Shown here: piece after piece, positions 1 through 5,512 of the stretch | How positions within the stretch are numbered: the first letter of the stretch is position 1 | Layout: every line of letters starts with the position of its first letter | Source: a virus | Taxonomy: Duplodnaviria; Heunggongvirae; Uroviricota; Caudoviricetes | Strand: one strand, 5' to 3' | Virus record (IMG/VR): IMGVR_UViG_2706794670_000011 | Length of the DNA: 5,512 nucleotides | The notes under the pieces: model-generated | Told to the model about the DNA's origin: nothing | Database searches by the model: none | The model's input: the letters and a program-made list of their open reading frames with translations, nothing else | Position numbers and translations under genes: made by a program

Positions 1-6
1 CTTTAG

Positions 7-384
7 AGTAACGTTGGGTTTTTCTGCTCATTATTAGCTCCTTCTGATGCCATTCTATTTCAGGAAGGAGTGTCCGTTAAACTCAGGCTACCTCAATTTG
101 CGCTGGGAAGTGGTGCGCAAGTTGCGTCTAGTGGCGATATTTATGGTTCAGTGTGGGAAAACAACTGGTTAAGCACATGGCTGCATAATCATGTCGTTCG
201 GGATATTCGTCTTGGCAGCATTGAATATAAAAACGTATGGCGCGACTACGGCTTTGGCGATGCGTCAGGTTATGTTTTAACAGCCGCAATTAACAGCAAT
301 GCGGATGATATTGTCGACACTGTTGCCAGAAGGCCAATTCAGAAATTGATTGGGGGAATATGGTACAACGTGGGGAGTGTTTAA
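7..384 (+). CDS. Tail fibre protein, C-terminal segment (stf-like); 5' part lies upstream of the window or is truncated
   Basis: Open frame from 7 to TAA at 382-384, directly followed by a tfa gene (TAAGATG junction). Its last ~60 aa align with the C-terminal end encoded on the minus strand at 1478-1660 (VRDIRLGS...[17 protein letters not shown] vs VRDVRLGT...[17 protein letters not shown]). An in-frame TAG sits at 4-6. Confidence 0.6.
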
Positions 385-385
385 G

Positions 386-913
386 ATGATGCACCTGAAA
401 AATATTAAGGCCGGGAATCCGAAAACACCGGAACAATACCAGCTAACTAAAAAAGCGGGCGTGGTATGGCTCTTTTGCGAAGATGGCAAAAACTGGTATG
501 AGGAACAAAAGAATTTTCAGCCAGACACCATAAAAATTGCTTACGATGAGAACAACATCATCGTTGCTGTCAGTAAAGACGTTTCAACTATTAATCCTGA
601 AGGGCTAAGCATAGTTGAAGTTCCTGATATTACGGCAAATCGTCACGCAGACAATAACGGAAAATGGATGTTTCTGGATGGTAAAGTAGTAAAGAGGGAA
701 TATACAGAACAGGAACTGCAACAACAGGCCGAATCACAAAAGGCCGCATTGCTTTCCGAAGCTGAATCAGTCATCCAGCCGCTGGAACGAGCTGTCAGGC
801 TGAATATGGCAACAGACGAGGAACGCACACGACTGGAAGCATGGGAACGCTACAGTGTTCTGGTCAGCCGTGTGGATACGGCAAATCCTGAATGGCCACA
901 AAAGCCTGAATAA
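386..913 (+). CDS. Tail fibre assembly protein (Tfa family chaperone)
   Basis: ATG at 386 ([14 protein letters not shown]...) one base after the stf stop, with GGGGAG 8 nt upstream. N-terminus and length match the Tfa family and are homologous to the convergent copy at 942-1475 ([14 protein letters not shown]...). C-terminus ([22 protein letters not shown]) is homologous to the tfa remnants at 2698-2781 and 3597-3830. The ORF track begins at 350, but 386 is the more likely start. Confidence 0.85.
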
Positions 914-941: not shown

Positions 942-1475
942 TCATTCTGGTTGTTCGGGAAACGTTACTGGCAGGCTGGAGGTGTCTGTGGATTCAACCT
1001 TCTGCGCATAGAGCATCCACTCGGTTAATTTTTGTTTATTCTCATCGGAAATGATGCCCAGCTGTAGCTGAGAGTCCCACAGCTGGGTTTTATCCCTGAC
1101 GAGCTGCAGCAGGCTCTGCTTTTCATTTTCCGCTTGTTGCCTTTGCTCTTCCTCGGTATAAGTTCGCTTTATCACCGCACCATCTTTGAACATCCAGTTG
1201 CCCGAAATATCAGCCCGGCGATTTGCTGTAATATCAGGCAACTCAACGACACTTAAACCTTCTGGATTAATTGCTGATACATCCTTGTCTATAGCAATAA
1301 TTATTCCCTCAACTGTGTAAGCCAGTTTTATTGTATCCTCCTGAAAGTTTTTTAATTCCTCATGCCAATTTTTTCCATCTTCGGACCATAACCAGATAAC
1401 ATCAAAATTCTTTGTTAGCTGGTATTGTTCAACGGTTTTTGGATTACCTGCGACAATGTTTTTTAAATGCTGCAT
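942..1475 (-). CDS. Tail fibre assembly protein (Tfa family), alternative copy
   Basis: 177-aa ORF starting [37 protein letters not shown], homologous along its length to the plus-strand Tfa at 386-913. Its ATG sits 2 nt after the stop of the upstream 49-aa stf' C-terminal ORF (TAATCATG). Confidence 0.85.
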
Positions 1476-1477
1476 GA

Positions 1478-1624
1478 TTATACCTGCGATACGTTATACC
1501 ATGTTCCGTTAATTAACTTTTGTATTGGTCTGAATACTGCCGGATCATCACCATCGACTTCACCGATAATACCAAGCCCCGTGATTACATGGCCTGATTT
1601 TTCATACATCACGCCTTTCTTCAT
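1478..1624 (-). CDS. 49-aa ORF encoding the conserved C-terminal end of the alternative tail fibre, detached from stf' by an in-frame amber codon
   Basis: Minus-strand [51 protein letters not shown]. It is in the same frame as the stf' ORF, separated only by TAG (1628-1630) plus one codon. It is homologous to the last ~45 aa of the plus-strand stf. Confidence 0.5.
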
Positions 1625-1627
1625 GGT

Positions 1628-2392
1628 CTAAACAACTCGTGTGCCAAGTCTGACATCTCTCACATAGCGGGAATCAAAGTTACCGTAATCCGAGGGATTA
1701 ACACGTCCCGTAATATTTATGGTTTTATTACTTTGAATGCTTCCGGAGACAAAGCGCATAACATGGACGTTATTAGCATAAACATCCAGATTACCATCGC
1801 CTTTTTGTTTAAAGCCCGTGTCATTATCACCCAATACAATCGAATTACCGCCAAGAGCACTGGATGTTCCGATACCCAGTGCACCATTCAGTTGACCACC
1901 AGANNNNNNNNNNNNNNNNNNNNNNNNNNNNNNNNNNNNNNNNNNNNNNNNNNNNNNNNNNNNNNNNNNNNNNNNNNNNNNNNNNNNNNNNNNNNNNNNN
2001 NNNNNNNNNNNNNNNNNNNNNNNNNNNNNNNNNNNNNNNNNNNNNNNNNNNNNNNNNNNNNNNNNNNNNNNNNNNNNNNNNNNNNNNNNNNNNNNNNNNN
2101 NNNNNNNNNNNNNNNNNNNNNNNNNNNNNNNNNNNNNNNNNNNNNNGGTGCTTCCTGTTTTCCCTAAGGCAAACGCACCAACATGACTTGCTTTTAATGT
2201 GATATCGGAGGAACCATCAAAAGCCACATTGCTTATTTTCCTGGCAGTTTTTAATTTTGCAGCTGTAGAAGCATTGCCGGATAGTTCACCAGAAAGGCCA
2301 CCGCTGAATGTTTGTCGATTAGTCCAGGTATTCGCTGTACTGAGTAACGGTATTTTCTCCCCGCTTGTGCCGAGTTCTCGTAAACCGAGGTT
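1628..2392 (-). CDS. Alternative tail fibre variable C-terminal segment (stf'); ends at in-frame TAG; middle part masked by Ns
   Basis: Minus frame is open from the crossover-like site (~2392) to TAG at 1628-1630. Translation (...ANTWTNRQTFSGGLSGELSGNASTAAKLKTARKISNVAFDGSSDITLKASHVGAFALGKTGST[81 masked]SGGQLNGALGIGTSSALGGNSIVLGDNDTGFKQKGDGNLDVYANNVHVMRFVSGS...) is typical of phage side tail fibre distal domains. The GTG at 2227 that the ORF track uses as start is probably internal. Confidence 0.65.
   Translation of the reverse strand, partial: NLGLRELGTSGEKIPLLSTANTWTNRQTFSGGLSGELSGNASTAAKLKTARKISNVAFDGSSDITLKASHVGAFALGKTGSTXXXXXXXXXXXXXXXXXXXXXXXXXXXXXXXXXXXXXXXXXXXXXXXXXXXXXXXXXXXXXXXXXXXXXXXXXXXXXXXXXSGGQLNGALGIGTSSALGGNSIVLGDNDTGFKQKGDGNLDVYANNVHVMRFVSGSIQSNKTINITGRVNPSDYGNFDSRYVRDVRLGTRVV
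1904..2146. other. Masked or unknown sequence (run of 243 N) inside stf'
   Basis: Continuous N run seen directly; content cannot be evaluated. Confidence 1.
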
Positions 2393-2400
2393 TTAGATAA
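2375..2400. promoter_or_regulatory. Candidate 26-bp crossover site for a Hin/Gin/Pin-family DNA invertase (hix/gix/pix-like)
   Basis: TTCTCGTAAACC-GA-GGTTTTAGATAA: two 12-bp imperfect inverted half-sites around a 2-bp core, located where the stf' frame opens and ~55 bp upstream of the invertase gene, the canonical position. The match to known crossover sites is from memory. Confidence 0.6.
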
Positions 2401-2454
2401 TGGCGGTTTCTGGCCTGCATGGCATGATTTGTGCTTTTGGACGGGAGATTCAGC

Positions 2455-2697
2455 GTGCTGATTGGCTATGTAAGGGTATCAACAAATGACCAGAATACAG
2501 ACCTGCAACGAAACGCTCTTGTTTGTGCAGGATATGAACAAATATTTGAAGATAAATTAAGCGGAACAAGGACAGGCCGACCTGGATTAAAACGTGCTTT
2601 AAAGCGCCTTCAAAAAGGTGACGCACTGGTTGTCTGAAAACTGGACTGACTGGGGCACTGTATGCGGCATCTTGTCGTGCTGGTGGTGGAAGCCTAG
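2455..2697 (+). pseudogene. pin: Serine DNA invertase (Pin/Hin/Gin family), disrupted: N-terminal ~80 codons with three in-frame stops, fused to a tfa 3' fragment
   Basis: GTG start at 2455 with GGAG 7 nt upstream. Translation MLIGYVRVSTNDQNTDLQRNALVCAGYEQIFEDKLSGTRTGRPGLKRALKRLQKGDALVV*KLD*LGHCMRHLVVLVVEA* carries the serine-recombinase N-terminal catalytic motif (YVRVST) and the family WKLDRLGR motif with W and R replaced by TGA (2635-2637, 2647-2649). The C-terminal two-thirds, including the HTH domain, is absent. Confidence 0.8.
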
Positions 2698-2781
2698 AAA
2701 AAGTATCGGGTGTTGCTGAACCGTGTTGATACATCAACTGCACCTGATATTGAGTGGCCTACGAACCCTGTCAGGGAGTAA
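2698..2781 (+). pseudogene. Tail fibre assembly protein 3' fragment (last ~28 codons), fused in frame behind the pin remnant
   Basis: [27 protein letters not shown] is nearly identical to the C-terminus of the tfa remnant at 3597-3830 and homologous to the C-terminus of Tfa at 386-913. The Trp codon of the conserved EAW motif is TAG here (2695-2697). Confidence 0.6.
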
Positions 2782-2830
2782 TCATTGGGATTATGCCGCA
2801 GCACGTCTTAAGCAAGAACGTGCTGCGGTT
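2698..2830 (+). repeat. Direct repeat copy 1 (tfa 3' end plus downstream hairpin)
   Basis: Manual alignment of 2704-2830 against 3753-3880 gives 9 mismatches and one 1-bp indel over ~127 bp. It contains the hairpin CCGCAGCACGT-(11 nt)-ACGTGCTGCGG at 2796-2828, followed by a T-run at 2839-2844. Confidence 0.85.
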
Positions 2831-2835
2831 GGATG

Positions 2836-3504
2836 CTATTTTTTCCCTGAAGCGGAAAACATTACTACAGTACCTTGAACCCTGGTTTTAACATTCTCGA
2901 AATGCTCTGAGAGTATATGTGTTAAGCCTTCTTCGGAATCTTTTGTGTTTGAAAAGATGCCTTTCTGATTGTAAATGCGCATCAGTTTTTGACCGAAGCT
3001 ATTGTGCACAACTCCATCGCCAAGAATTGTGGCTCCGTATAGAGTTCCATCGTCAGTTAAGGCCTGCGCCGCATTGCGTATTACACAGCTTTTTGTAGAT
3101 ATATTTCCAGGCAGGCAGTGAAGAAGGTAAAACATGGAAATGGAATCAAATTGACCATGTAACGCCGCGGGATAAGGTTCAAAAACATCATGGCTAATTT
3201 TATGTTTAATTTTTGATTCCCCAGCCCTTGTAGATGCCGCGTTCAGGCTAGCTTCGTTCAAATCCATTAAAGATATCAGACTACTCTCAGGTACGTGAGT
3301 AAGGTAAAACCCAGTTCCAACACCAATATCCAGATGGTTGTTACCTAAATGTTCCAGAAAGTGTGGAAGAAGGTGTTCCTTTGTAGGACATCCCCATGCA
3401 AGCCGATTTGATACTCCCAAAACCCACCAGTCATAAAGCTTTAGGGTAAGTGGTGTGTAAATTTTAGCCCCATCATCTGTGTTTGTTTTCATTGATTTCA
3501 CCAT
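2836..3504 (-). CDS. Class I SAM-dependent methyltransferase (Rossmann fold), substrate unknown; probable prophage cargo (moron) gene
   Basis: 222-aa ORF (218 aa from the second ATG at 3492, which has GGTGA 5 nt upstream). Motif I LDIGVGTGFY (GxGxG SAM-binding loop), an acidic residue at the end of the next strand (LISLMDLNE), a later FDSISMFYLLHCLP segment and ALTDDGTLY. No DPPY/NPPY or PC-ENV motifs, so it is not an obvious DNA methyltransferase. Confidence 0.75.
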   Translation of the reverse strand: MVKSMKTNTDDGAKIYTPLTLKLYDWWVLGVSNRLAWGCPTKEHLLPHFLEHLGNNHLDIGVGTGFYLTHVPESSLISLMDLNEASLNAASTRAGESKIKHKISHDVFEPYPAALHGQFDSISMFYLLHCLPGNISTKSCVIRNAAQALTDDGTLYGATILGDGVVHNSFGQKLMRIYNQKGIFSNTKDSEEGLTHILSEHFENVKTRVQGTVVMFSASGKK

Positions 3505-3533
3505 GTTATAGTTTTATTTGTGAATTAAATCAA
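3505..3533 (-). promoter_or_regulatory. Candidate sigma70 promoter for the methyltransferase gene
   Basis: On the minus strand, TTGATT - 17 bp - TATAAC lies immediately upstream of the first ATG, in an AT-rich gap. It is speculative, and the spacing to the preferred second start is tight. Confidence 0.25.
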
Positions 3534-3596
3534 TTATGGCGATGAATTACAAGGGGTTAAATGCTGCCGCAGCATAGCGATATTGAAATAGCCTAG

Positions 3597-3830
3597 TATG
3601 CTTCGATACAGCAGGAGCCGAATGGCTGGAAGACCGTCACCACACAGTTCTACATCCAGGAATTTAGTGAGTATATTGCGCCACTGCAGGATGCTGTAGA
3701 TCTGGAAATCGCAACGGAGGAAGAAAGATCGTTGCTGGAGGCATGGAATAAATATCGGGTATTGTTGAATCGTGTTGATACATCAACTGCACCTGATATT
3801 GAGTGGCCTGCAAATCCTGTCAGGGAGTAA
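3597..3830 (+). pseudogene. Tail fibre assembly protein C-terminal remnant (~77 codons, no start codon)
   Basis: Frame open from 3597 (stop at 3594-3596) to TAA at 3828-3830. Translation ...[57 protein letters not shown] is homologous to the C-terminal third of Tfa at 386-913. There is no ATG and no N-terminal Tfa domain. Confidence 0.7.
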
Positions 3831-3880
3831 TCATTGGGATTATGCCGCAGACACGTCGTATGCAGGAACGTGCTGCGGTT
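3747..3880 (+). repeat. Direct repeat copy 2 (tfa 3' end plus downstream hairpin)
   Basis: Partner of 2698-2830. Hairpin at 3845-3878 (CCGCAGACACGT...ACGTGCTGCGG) has a 1-nt bulge relative to copy 1. Confidence 0.85.
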
Positions 3881-3944
3881 AGTTTGTGAGCTTTCGATAG
3901 TGGTTGTTATTTTTGCCCTTATTTGTTCCGGAGGCCATGGTTCA

Positions 3945-4115
3945 ATGGTCCGTCTGCCCCCTGTGGTGATGTCAGCAAAATCAGCCACTGCGCGAACCAC
4001 AATAGCCCGGGAAGATGCTGAAGATCACCAGGTAAAGCTGTCAGCGCAGAAACTGGAAGAACTGCTCGCATCAATGGTTAAGGATGAGGTTGATCGCAAT
4101 GATGGGATTTATTGA
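3945..4115 (+). CDS. Hypothetical small protein (56 aa), doubtful
   Basis: ATG at 3945 with GGAGG 10 nt upstream; MVRLPPVVMSAKSATARTTIAREDAEDHQVKLSAQKLEELLASMVKDEVDRNDGIY*. No family recognised. The frame continues open for 29 codons after the TGA at 4113-4115. Confidence 0.2.
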   Translation: MVRLPPVVMSAKSATARTTIAREDAEDHQVKLSAQKLEELLASMVKDEVDRNDGIY

Positions 4116-4209
4116 CGTCAGCGAGAGCAGAAGGAAGAACTGAATAACCTGAATGATTTACGCTCAATCAGAGCGATGGCGATTAGCGGCAATCACGCTC
4201 GATAAAATT

Positions 4210-4234
4210 AACCTCGGTGATCATCCGGGGTTTT
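4210..4234. terminator. Hairpin between convergent genes, possible bidirectional terminator
   Basis: AACCTCGG-TGATCAT-CCGGGGTT (8-bp stem, one mismatch) followed by TTTT on the plus strand and preceded by an A/T run, a few nt from the rha stop at 4241-4243. Confidence 0.4.
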
Positions 4235-4240
4235 GCATTC

Positions 4241-4833
4241 ATTAAAACCGCATCAACCTTTCCACCAATTGTTCTTTACGGGCAACGATCCACCCATGTT
4301 GCTCCAGATAAAATTTAAACCGTTCCAGAGTGCATACCATCGCATCGGCGGGGACTTTTTCTGTGAACTCGACCTGANNNNNNNNNNNNNNNNNNNNNNN
4401 NNNNNNNNNNNNNNNNNNNNNNNNNNNNNNNNNNNNNNNNNNNNNNNNNNNNNNNNNNNNNNNNNNNNNNNNNNNNNNNNNNNNNNNNNNNNNNNNNNNN
4501 NNNNNNNNNNNNNNNNNNNNNNNNNNNNNNNNNNNNNNNNNNNNNNNNNNNNNNNNNNNNNNNNNNNNNNNNNNNNNNNNNNNNNNNNNNNNNNNNNNNN
4601 NNNNNNNNNNNNNNNNNNNNNNNNNNNNNNNNNNNNNNNNNNNNNNNNNNNNNNNNNNNCCGAAAAGTTGGCTGATGTAAATTCGGGAGAGCAGTCGAGT
4701 GTGTCAATCTTAGCTAAAACGTGTTTATGTTGTTTATCGAAGTAGTCGGCAACAGCTTGAGAGGTGGTAACCAGGCGACCATCTTTGAAAAAGACTTTTG
4801 GTGACTCGTTAGAAAAAGTTATAGCTGTATTCA
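4241..4833 (-). CDS. Phage regulatory protein, Rha family (N-terminal Rha domain visible; centre masked; C-terminal part in a different frame)
   Basis: ATG at 4833 (minus) with GGAG 9 nt upstream. N-terminus MNTAITFSNESPKVFFKDGRLVTTSQAVADYFDKQHKHVLAKIDTL matches the Rha-domain pattern (...TTS..VA..F.K.H..VL..I..L). After the N-run the only protein-like minus frame is ...QVEFTEKVPADAMVCTLERFKFYLEQHGWIVARKEQLVERLMRF*, ending at 4241-4243. Confidence 0.6.
4378..4659. other. Masked or unknown sequence (run of 282 N) inside the rha locus
   Basis: Continuous N run seen directly. Confidence 1.
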
Positions 4834-5409
4834 TATGTGATGACTCCAATTAATTGGATGATCACCACCTCTGACGCCAATCAGGGAGGTGGTGAGACGT
4901 ACAGGGTTGGCGTAACCGGTCATCACAAAACCCGGCGCGGATTTCTCCGCCCCTGCACGCCCCACCATAATGCGAATGTGGCAATGCTTAACGCAAAAAA
5001 AACCGCAAACGCGGCTATGCGTTGTGATGTTATCCGAGACGCCAATCCCGACAACCGATTTTGCGGTTGTGTGAGGAATATAGCCCCGGAGAACAAAAAC
5101 TGTCAACGGGCAAAAAAATTTCCGTTATCAGGAATGTATAAAATTAAAGCGATCGAGCAAAAAATCCTTTCTGCAAAACTAAAAAAGATTTCAATAAAAT
5201 CAGGCAGTTAAAAACACGGAAAACGGTATAAAAAAGCGCCTCAAAATCCTGTTTTTTCTTTCAGATACAATGTCTTATTGCATTTTTTAAAACATGTCAG
5301 TGTGGTACATGGATATCGATACCATCGCCAATTATAAACTGGGCGGTGCACAGCAACATGATAGCGTACGCCTCGATCCGTGGGTGTTTATGTTCTCAGC
5401 AGGATATCG

Positions 5410-5512
5410 GGTAATGACTCCAACTTATTGATAGTGTTTTATGTTCAGATAATGCCCGATGACTTTGTCATGCAGCTCCACCGATTTTGAGAACGACAGC
5501 GACTTCCGTCCC
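5410..5512 (-). mobile_element. IS1 insertion sequence, right end (partial; continues beyond the window)
   Basis: GGTAATGACTCCAACTTATTGATAGTGTTTTATGTTCAGATAATGCCCGATGACTTTGTCATGCAGCTCC... matches, from memory, the reverse complement of the IS1 right terminus, including the ~23-bp terminal inverted repeat at 5410-5432. Confidence 0.9.
5425..5512 (-). CDS. insB: IS1 transposase InsB, C-terminal end (partial)
   Basis: Minus-strand translation ...GRKSLSFSKSVELHDKVIGHYLNIKHYQ* with stop at 5425-5427, the characteristic InsB C-terminus. Confidence 0.85.
   Translation of the reverse strand, partial: GRKSLSFSKSVELHDKVIGHYLNIKHYQ

Follow-up and report, generated by a model that had tools for sequence, protein, structure and literature searches.

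The invertase frame that begins at position 2455 of the window (the whole 5,512-nt stretch of Caudoviricetes DNA analysed here, IMG/VR record IMGVR_UViG_2706794670_000011) belongs to a pseudogene derived from the Gin/Pin family of serine invertases, and not to a functional member of that family. Taken as a whole, the evidence is best explained, with a probability of roughly 0.9, by the long-dead remnant of a Gin/Pin-type invertase standing at the right border of an invertible tail-fibre segment of the Mu-G/e14-P type. The invertible tail-fibre locus itself, in prophage Phi4 of the ST131 strain EC958, and its inversion, proposed to take place in trans, have already been published (Forde et al. 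2014, PLoS One 9:e104400, PMC4134206); the tfa fusion, the allele series and the Chi coincidence reported here are small additions to that description. Their value lies mainly in annotation, where a 60-aa 'recombinase family protein' ORF and a small 'tail fiber assembly protein' ORF are in fact parts of one fused pseudogene. The locus is also a clear case of host-range modules being grafted between unrelated phage types and then decaying, and a reminder that a dead invertase gene is not the same as a dead switch, since close ST131 genomes differ in orientation and a paralogue most likely acts in trans.

Identity and decay of the invertase stump

The frame from the GTG at 2455 opens with VLIGYVRVSTNDQ, and its translation contains the YVRVST motif with the nucleophilic serine. 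When the two TGA codons are repaired, codons 1-77 match the Pfam Resolvase family (PF00239, E=1.3e-21), the match spanning no more than profile positions 2-85 of 145. Over their full length they also align with residues 1-77 of Gin, a protein of 193 residues (PDB 4M6F/3UJ3, E=5e-41). An intact P88-type invertase, by comparison, covers PF00239 positions 2-144 and carries HTH_7 (PF02796) at residues 138-180, a domain that was absent from the repaired stump in the Pfam search. Helix E and the C-terminal helix-turn-helix DNA-binding domain are missing, and tfa sequence follows codon 77. At the DNA level, intact invertase genes of the P88 and Mu types share about 94% identity with the stump as far as about position 2656, and over 2660-2686 (GTATGCGGCATCTTGTCGTGCTGGTGG) the stump is identical to K-12 pinE.

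In place of an uninterrupted ORF of about 190-200 codons, the frame has stops at codons 61 and 65 and loses its homology to invertases at codon 78. Of the D-R-L-G-R catalytic motif the stump retains D-(stop)-L-G-H, the first arginine being replaced by a stop and the second by histidine. The original prediction, made from the letters of the DNA, had proposed a Pin-type N-terminus with its catalytic serine, two nonsense codons within WKLDRLGR, and loss of the C-terminus at a recombination junction. All three proposals are borne out: the Pfam and Gin matches identify the N-terminus, both TGA codons are read in frame (Table 1), and 60% of the invertase is gone. The stump cannot yield an active enzyme.

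Table 1. Features of the window, in order of position.
Feature	Position	Strand	Remarks
IS600 end (orfA start and terminal repeat)	1..95	-	Truncates the plus-strand Sv at 95/96
Tail-fibre variable part Sv, C-terminal remnant in the former invertible segment	96..384	+	ORF 70-384
Tail-fibre assembly gene, U-type	386..913	+	175 aa; Pfam Caudo_TAP E=7.9e-37
Alternative tail-fibre assembly gene U'	942..1475	-	177 aa; Pfam Caudo_TAP E=4.8e-34
Alternative tail-fibre variable part Sv'	1478..2374	-	From ORFs; 1904-2146 masked
Right 26-bp crossover site, pix/gix type, TTCTCGTAAACCGAGGTTTTAGATAA	2375..2400	+	Single exact match, none in shuffles
Invertase pseudogene stump	2455..2686	+	Codons 1-77 and first base of codon 78, of ~193-199
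Presumed Fis-dependent recombinational enhancer	2476..2539		~100 bp from crossover site
TGA for Trp61 of intact invertases	2635..2637	+	Inside WKLDRLGR; TGG kept in other stump copies
TGA for catalytic Arg65 (DRLGR motif)	2647..2649	+	In all copies read
Chi octamer GCTGGTGG	2679..2686	+	Sole Chi in the window; 3' end exactly at the joint
Last 31 codons and stop of lambda-type tfa	2687..2781	+	In frame with the stump
TAG replacing Trp of the tfa EAW motif	2695..2697	+	TGG retained in other alleles
ybcY-like class I SAM-dependent methyltransferase, intact	2836..3504	-	222 aa; Pfam methyltransferase domains
Second tfa 3' fragment (tfaX-like)	3560..3830	+	Annotated as partial tfa in relatives
IS1 end	5410..5512		ompW-side prophage border; homology to E. 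coli relatives stops at 5409

The junction with tfa

The junction was mapped by DNA alignment to K-12 pinE, a P88-type invertase, Mu-type gin and the tfa ends of PhiR26_1 and 2G7b. The two parts meet between 2686 and 2687, to within about 3 nt, in codon 78 and in the reading frame of tfa: the DNA is identical to pinE up to GCTGGTGG and identical to tfa from TGGAAGCC onwards, the sequence from 2687 being TGGAAGCCTAGAAAAAGTATCGGGTG... The tfa piece is 98.6% identical at the DNA level to the 3' end of the intact tfa of PhiR26_1 and its relatives. With only its last 31 codons present, the fused tfa does not amount to a full-length Caudo_TAP domain (PF02413). The joint is near-blunt, as shown by the retention of both TGG triplets, and is for this reason ascribed to illegitimate and not to homologous recombination.

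As regards the original prediction, the fusion and the in-frame switch to a tfa C-terminus both hold, the latter on the strength of the alignment to intact tfa, whereas the junction itself, which had been placed at about codon 80 and at 2689-2697, lies slightly upstream, in codon 78 (2686/2687). The Trp of the tfa EAW motif is indeed read as TAG. The prediction had also proposed an alignment to intact invertases and related loci, and had named a downstream region of other origin as the outcome that would speak against it; in that alignment the downstream region is tfa-derived.

The Chi octamer that ends at the joint is found at the homologous position of the intact K-12 pinE. Moreover, the invertase DNA that was kept lies on the 5' side of Chi, which is the orientation that RecBCD recognises when it arrives from the deleted side.

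A tail-fibre cassette in a lambdoid module

Upstream of the stump, two opposed sets of a tail-fibre C-terminus and an assembly gene are present, Sv/U on the plus strand and U'/Sv' on the minus strand. The relatives L036 and L044 match the window from position 96 at 99.9%. The IMG/VR contig UViG_2869953405_000008 (L021), which is 100% identical to the window, provides an unmasked copy of Sv' that matches Pfam gp37_C and gp37_trimer. The masked runs of the window at 1904-2146 and 4378-4659 do not have their true length, since 243 N stand for 255 nt and 282 N for 247 nt in L021. An in-frame TAG at 1625-1627 (minus strand) splits Sv' 49 codons from its end, and the plus-strand counterpart is open at that point.

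Downstream of the stump, window 2684-3830 equals the lambdoid tfa-ybcY-tfaX module known from K-12 DLP12 and from PhiR26_1, 2G7b and ev243, except that the cassette and the invertase stump stand in place of the first ~160 tfa codons. In PhiR26_1 and 2G7b, which are intact, inducible lambdoid phages, stf and tfa are accompanied by a convergent ybcY-like methyltransferase and a second tfa fragment. The direct repeat in the window (2684-2830 versus 3733-3880, 88-89% identity) represents the paired tfa 3' ends and downstream sequence that normally flank the methyltransferase. Relatives whose sequence extends further upstream have, in this order, gpJ, lom and a long stf whose N-terminus is of the lambda type, followed by a crossover site, Sv, U, U', Sv', a second crossover site, stump, tfa end, ybcY and tfaX. 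From this order and from the normal lambdoid module it follows that a lambdoid side-tail-fibre operon received, by grafting, a cassette of the Mu-G/e14-P type; the stump/tfa joint, as read from the DNA, marks the right-hand end of the graft.

The tfaX fragment carries a TGG-to-TAG change of its own at 3593-3595, which is lineage-specific (the window has A at 3595 and EC958 has G). It is the third Trp-to-stop G-to-A change within about 1 kb.

Spread and allele series

The same junction and all three stops are found in EC958, which differs from the window by 11 mismatches over 2147-4377. Among 5426 complete E. coli genomes, 426 cover at least 80% of window 2300-2900, and 36 IMG/VR contigs contain the 24 nt of the junction as an exact match. 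The stump is present at two or more chromosomal sites, in some cases adjoining ompW/trpA and in others adjoining potB. Since EC958, the 426 genomes and the 36 contigs share the junction or the region around it, sequencing error is excluded. This also settles the possibility, raised with the original prediction, that resequencing would expose the stops as errors, as stops and junction recur in EC958 and across assemblies. The junction is likewise present on a 2.5-kb contig (L012, JAEWTL010000008.1) binned into a 'Bacillota bacterium' MAG, the sole match in the scan of genome contigs; the contig is probably mis-binned or a contaminant and has no bearing on host range.

An allele series could be built from the reading frame in 40-odd loci. 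The junction and the TGA at codon 65 are common to every copy read. The least-decayed copies read ...CAGCEQ...TKTDRPGL...VVWKLD(stop)...EAWKKYRV, while derived copies gain C27Y and the change of Trp61 to TGA, and then the change of the tfa Trp to TAG; the window and EC958 carry all three, and one allele (L018) has yet another stop. All three changes are G-to-A. The stops at codon 61 and in tfa can be polarised as derived G-to-A changes because other alleles still have TGG there. At codon 65, CGC or CGG stands in the closest intact relatives, and a C-to-T change in one step is therefore not demonstrated. The original remark that several of the stops are consistent with G-to-A or C-to-T transitions thus stands for codon 61 and for the tfa TAG, while the proposed C-to-T change of CGA to TGA at codon 65 is not demonstrated. 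In a search with a chimeric query, made of the 5' part from the window and the 3' part of pinE, the best full-length matches were 88.5% identical (K-12 pinE), too distant to polarise codon 65, and an intact gene with more than 95% identity over the entire stump was not recovered. In a comparison along the stump aimed at selection on the enhancer, variable sites number 4 in 2455-2533, 12 in 2534-2600 and 5 in 2601-2686, in a sample too small and too phylogenetically dependent to carry weight.

Inversion in ST131 relatives

The invertible segment of Phi4 measures 3106 bp, with crossover sites at 1484784-1484809 and 1487865-1487890, and its invertase has been described as 'severely truncated' (Forde et al. 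2014, PMC4134206). Both published sites coincide exactly with the sites located here in EC958 (L001). PacBio contigs of EC958 were found in the alternative orientation, with about half of the reads of one culture inverted, and the invertase of Phi1, a prophage whose crossover sites are nearly identical to those of Phi4, was proposed to act on Phi4 in trans (PMC4134206).

Composites derived from the window were blurred by mosaicism and by a masked run, and the query for the inverted junction was built from EC958 with the crossover at the site centres. Many ST131 genomes, including JJ1886, JJ1887, MNCRE44 and 4/0, contain the predicted inverted junction in its full 920 nt at 100.0% identity; EC958, 4/1-1 and 4/4 have the other orientation. 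At a coverage of at least 80%, the inverted junction is present in 143 genomes and the EC958 orientation in 373, but these totals may include genomes with an intact invertase, from which the 100% full-length matches, unlike the totals, cannot stem. A direct comparison of EC958 with JJ1886 gives flanks that are 100% identical and a 3.1-kb segment inverted exactly between the 26-bp sites. No long inverted repeats able to support RecA-mediated inversion were found in the EC958 locus.

EC958, JJ1886, 4/1-1, 4/4 and many other genomes share, at 100% identity, an intact 199-aa invertase that belongs to a P2-like prophage; in EC958 it lies at 957668-958267, adjoining the published Phi1 site. The ST131 relatives therefore have a working switch in spite of the dead gene. 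The intact Phi1-type paralogue is most likely the enzyme that acts in trans. The original prediction held that the switch is frozen unless an invertase acts in trans, and the second half of this statement agrees with what is seen in ST131, where relatives with the same dead gene do invert (EC958/JJ1886; PMC4134206).

As a side observation, the annotation gives the tail-fibre gene of Phi4 as a complete ORF when the segment is in the JJ1886 orientation and as a pseudogene lacking its C-terminus when it is in the EC958 orientation, and a full-length fibre may be produced from only one of the two orientations. One further locus, L039, had been considered as an inverted copy (its cassettes are 99.9% identical) and was dropped as evidence, being a scaffold with N joints that merges P2-like and lambdoid prophages. 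In this scaffold N gaps connect the lambdoid locus with a P2-like tail region, and a second invertase copy, which is intact, is present; the scaffold looks like an assembly chimera formed through the shared repeat of crossover site and invertase.

A putative Fis enhancer in the retained DNA

In such systems the Fis enhancer is part of the invertase gene itself and is separated from the crossover site by about 100 bp (McLean 2013); the title of Kahmann 1985 likewise places an enhancer within the invertase gene. Window 2360-2656, which includes the 5' part of the invertase, is 91-94% identical to functional gin-type genes, and this stretch still includes the DNA that lies about 100 bp from the site. 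Within it, two 15-bp G...C Fis-type cores, which we take to be such by homology to the hin enhancer sequence, are located at 2476-2490 and 2525-2539. The GenBank record of Mu has no enhancer feature annotated. By analogy with these systems, the dead gene, through the 5' 230 bp that it has kept, probably supplies the Fis enhancer in cis in the relatives that still invert.

The switch in the genome of the window

The right crossover site matches, letter for letter, the Phi4_3prime site that Forde et al. 2014 list in their Table 3 (PMC4134206). The left, inverted site, which is present in relatives, was found neither in the window nor in the 4.9 kb upstream of it in L021. The ORFs upstream of the window in L021 are IS3-family orfA/orfB, 99.6% identical to an annotated 'IS3-like element IS600', and the point at which IS600 cuts Sv is evident because uninterrupted relatives match only from window position 96. 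Beyond IS600, L021 has an ORF that, from its DUF1737 and SASA-like motifs, is presumably a NanS-p-like esterase; the IS600 end and this ORF imply a large IS-mediated deletion or rearrangement of the prophage. At the other end, the ORF of L021 downstream of the window that ends in ...VIGHYLNIKHYQ is presumably IS1 InsB.

The region is therefore a decaying prophage remnant bounded by IS600 and IS1, in which the segment is of the invertible type but incomplete. With the segment truncated by IS600, and with no left crossover site in the window or in the 4.9 kb upstream of it, the switch is presumably frozen in this genome, in agreement with the first half of the original statement; unless a displaced left site lies further away, the sequence leads one to expect that inversion cannot occur here. 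The presence of both IS600 and IS1 may point to a Shigella-like host or an IS-rich E. coli.

Proposed history and alternatives

The history that we propose starts with an ancestral lambdoid prophage, which would have gained a cassette consisting of Sv, U, U', Sv', a crossover site and the invertase gene. Its right joint would have arisen when illegitimate, near-blunt recombination linked invertase codon 78 to about codon 163 of a resident lambda-type tfa. With that event the gene would have lost what remained of the catalytic domain, as well as helix E and the helix-turn-helix DNA-binding domain. Neutral decay of the stump would have brought the Arg65 stop that is common to the copies read, with C27Y, the Trp61 stop and the tfa stop as later changes. 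Relatives that kept both 26-bp sites, such as those with the ST131 Phi4, would still flip by means of the intact paralogue of the P2-like prophage (Phi1) acting in trans, while in the genome of the window IS600 would have cut away the left part of the segment together with the left crossover site, leaving the switch physically frozen. How the joint formed, which enzyme acts in trans and what the enhancer does are the parts of this history that we infer; the anatomy of the locus, its junction, the sharing of the stump among genomes, the order of two of its stops, the polymorphism in orientation and the existence of an intact paralogue are shown by the data above.

For the joint itself, RecBCD resection to Chi may have set the break point, on a post-hoc reading of a single event: resection of a linear donor would have begun at the distal end of the invertase gene and proceeded as far as Chi, and the Chi-ended tail would then have been joined to tfa. 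If the coincidence with Chi were general, it would offer a simple rule for the places where break points of prophage module exchange fall. Survival of the 5' 230 bp in all copies could similarly be due to the Fis enhancer close to the crossover site, and the cassette would then be an 'orphan' switch, dependent in trans on whatever Pin-family invertase is resident. That both ideas are right together, so that neither the break point nor the retained DNA is accidental, we regard as rather unlikely, though not far-fetched.

Several other explanations of the locus can be weighed against a dead invertase whose segment is inverted from elsewhere. One might suspect that stops and junction are sequencing or assembly artefacts and that the real gene is intact, given that the window has masked N runs and comes from a draft-derived viral contig; but with the same stops and junction in EC958, the junction region covered by independently assembled genomes (all 426 of them), the junction again in the IMG/VR contigs, and alleles that form a coherent series, this suspicion has next to no chance of being correct. 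The product of the stump might still be functional, either by readthrough of the TGA codons or as a 60-aa N-terminal peptide serving as a regulator or dominant-negative partner of the paralogue. PGAP does annotate a 'recombinase family protein' ORF of 60-64 aa in some relatives, and the first 26 codons vary little among copies. Even full readthrough, however, would give a protein without both motif arginines (one a stop, the other His) and without residues 78-193, and stops accumulate progressively, with an extra one in L018, as neutral decay predicts. The conservation of the 5' DNA could equally stem from an enhancer acting in cis or from recent common ancestry. We consider a functional product highly improbable.

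Somewhat less remote, though still very unlikely, is that the differences in orientation arose by RecA-dependent recombination at inverted repeats, or by replacement from other prophages, and not through an invertase in trans. Inverted repeats of at least 260 bp and 98.5% identity do occur at the segment ends in OZ040035 and NCTC86, and the tail-fibre cassettes are clearly mosaic. The repeats in ST131, by contrast, are only the imperfect 26-36-bp sites (PMC4134206 Table 3), the inversion there is clean, with its ends exactly at the sites and its flanks 100% identical, and inversion in about half of the PacBio reads (PMC4134206) is far too frequent for recombination on ~13 identical bases. Inversion by a trans-acting invertase remains the preferred reading for the ST131 relatives.

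Comparison with known systems

The closest known counterpart is Phi4 of EC958, which represents the same locus, with 99.5% identity over window 2147-4377, the same right crossover site, the three stops and the junction. The two differ in the tail-fibre cassettes to the left of about position 1640, and the copy in the window, unlike Phi4, has lost its left part to IS600 and has IS1 at its border. The tfa fusion, the nonsense codons and the Chi site are not described for Phi4 in Forde et al. 2014 (PMC4134206).

Among the characterized inversion systems, Gin (Mu), Pin (e14), Cin (P1) and Hin (Salmonella) all resemble the stump in their N-terminal catalytic sequence with the Ser9 nucleophile, and share with the locus of the window a 26-bp crossover site that precedes the gene by about 55 bp and a layout of Sv-U and U'-Sv' cassettes. 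Unlike these enzymes, the stump has 77 of ~193 residues and two stops, and lacks the DRLGR arginines, helix E and the DNA-binding domain. The cassette of the window is carried by a lambdoid prophage, and not by a genome of the Mu, P1 or P2 type.
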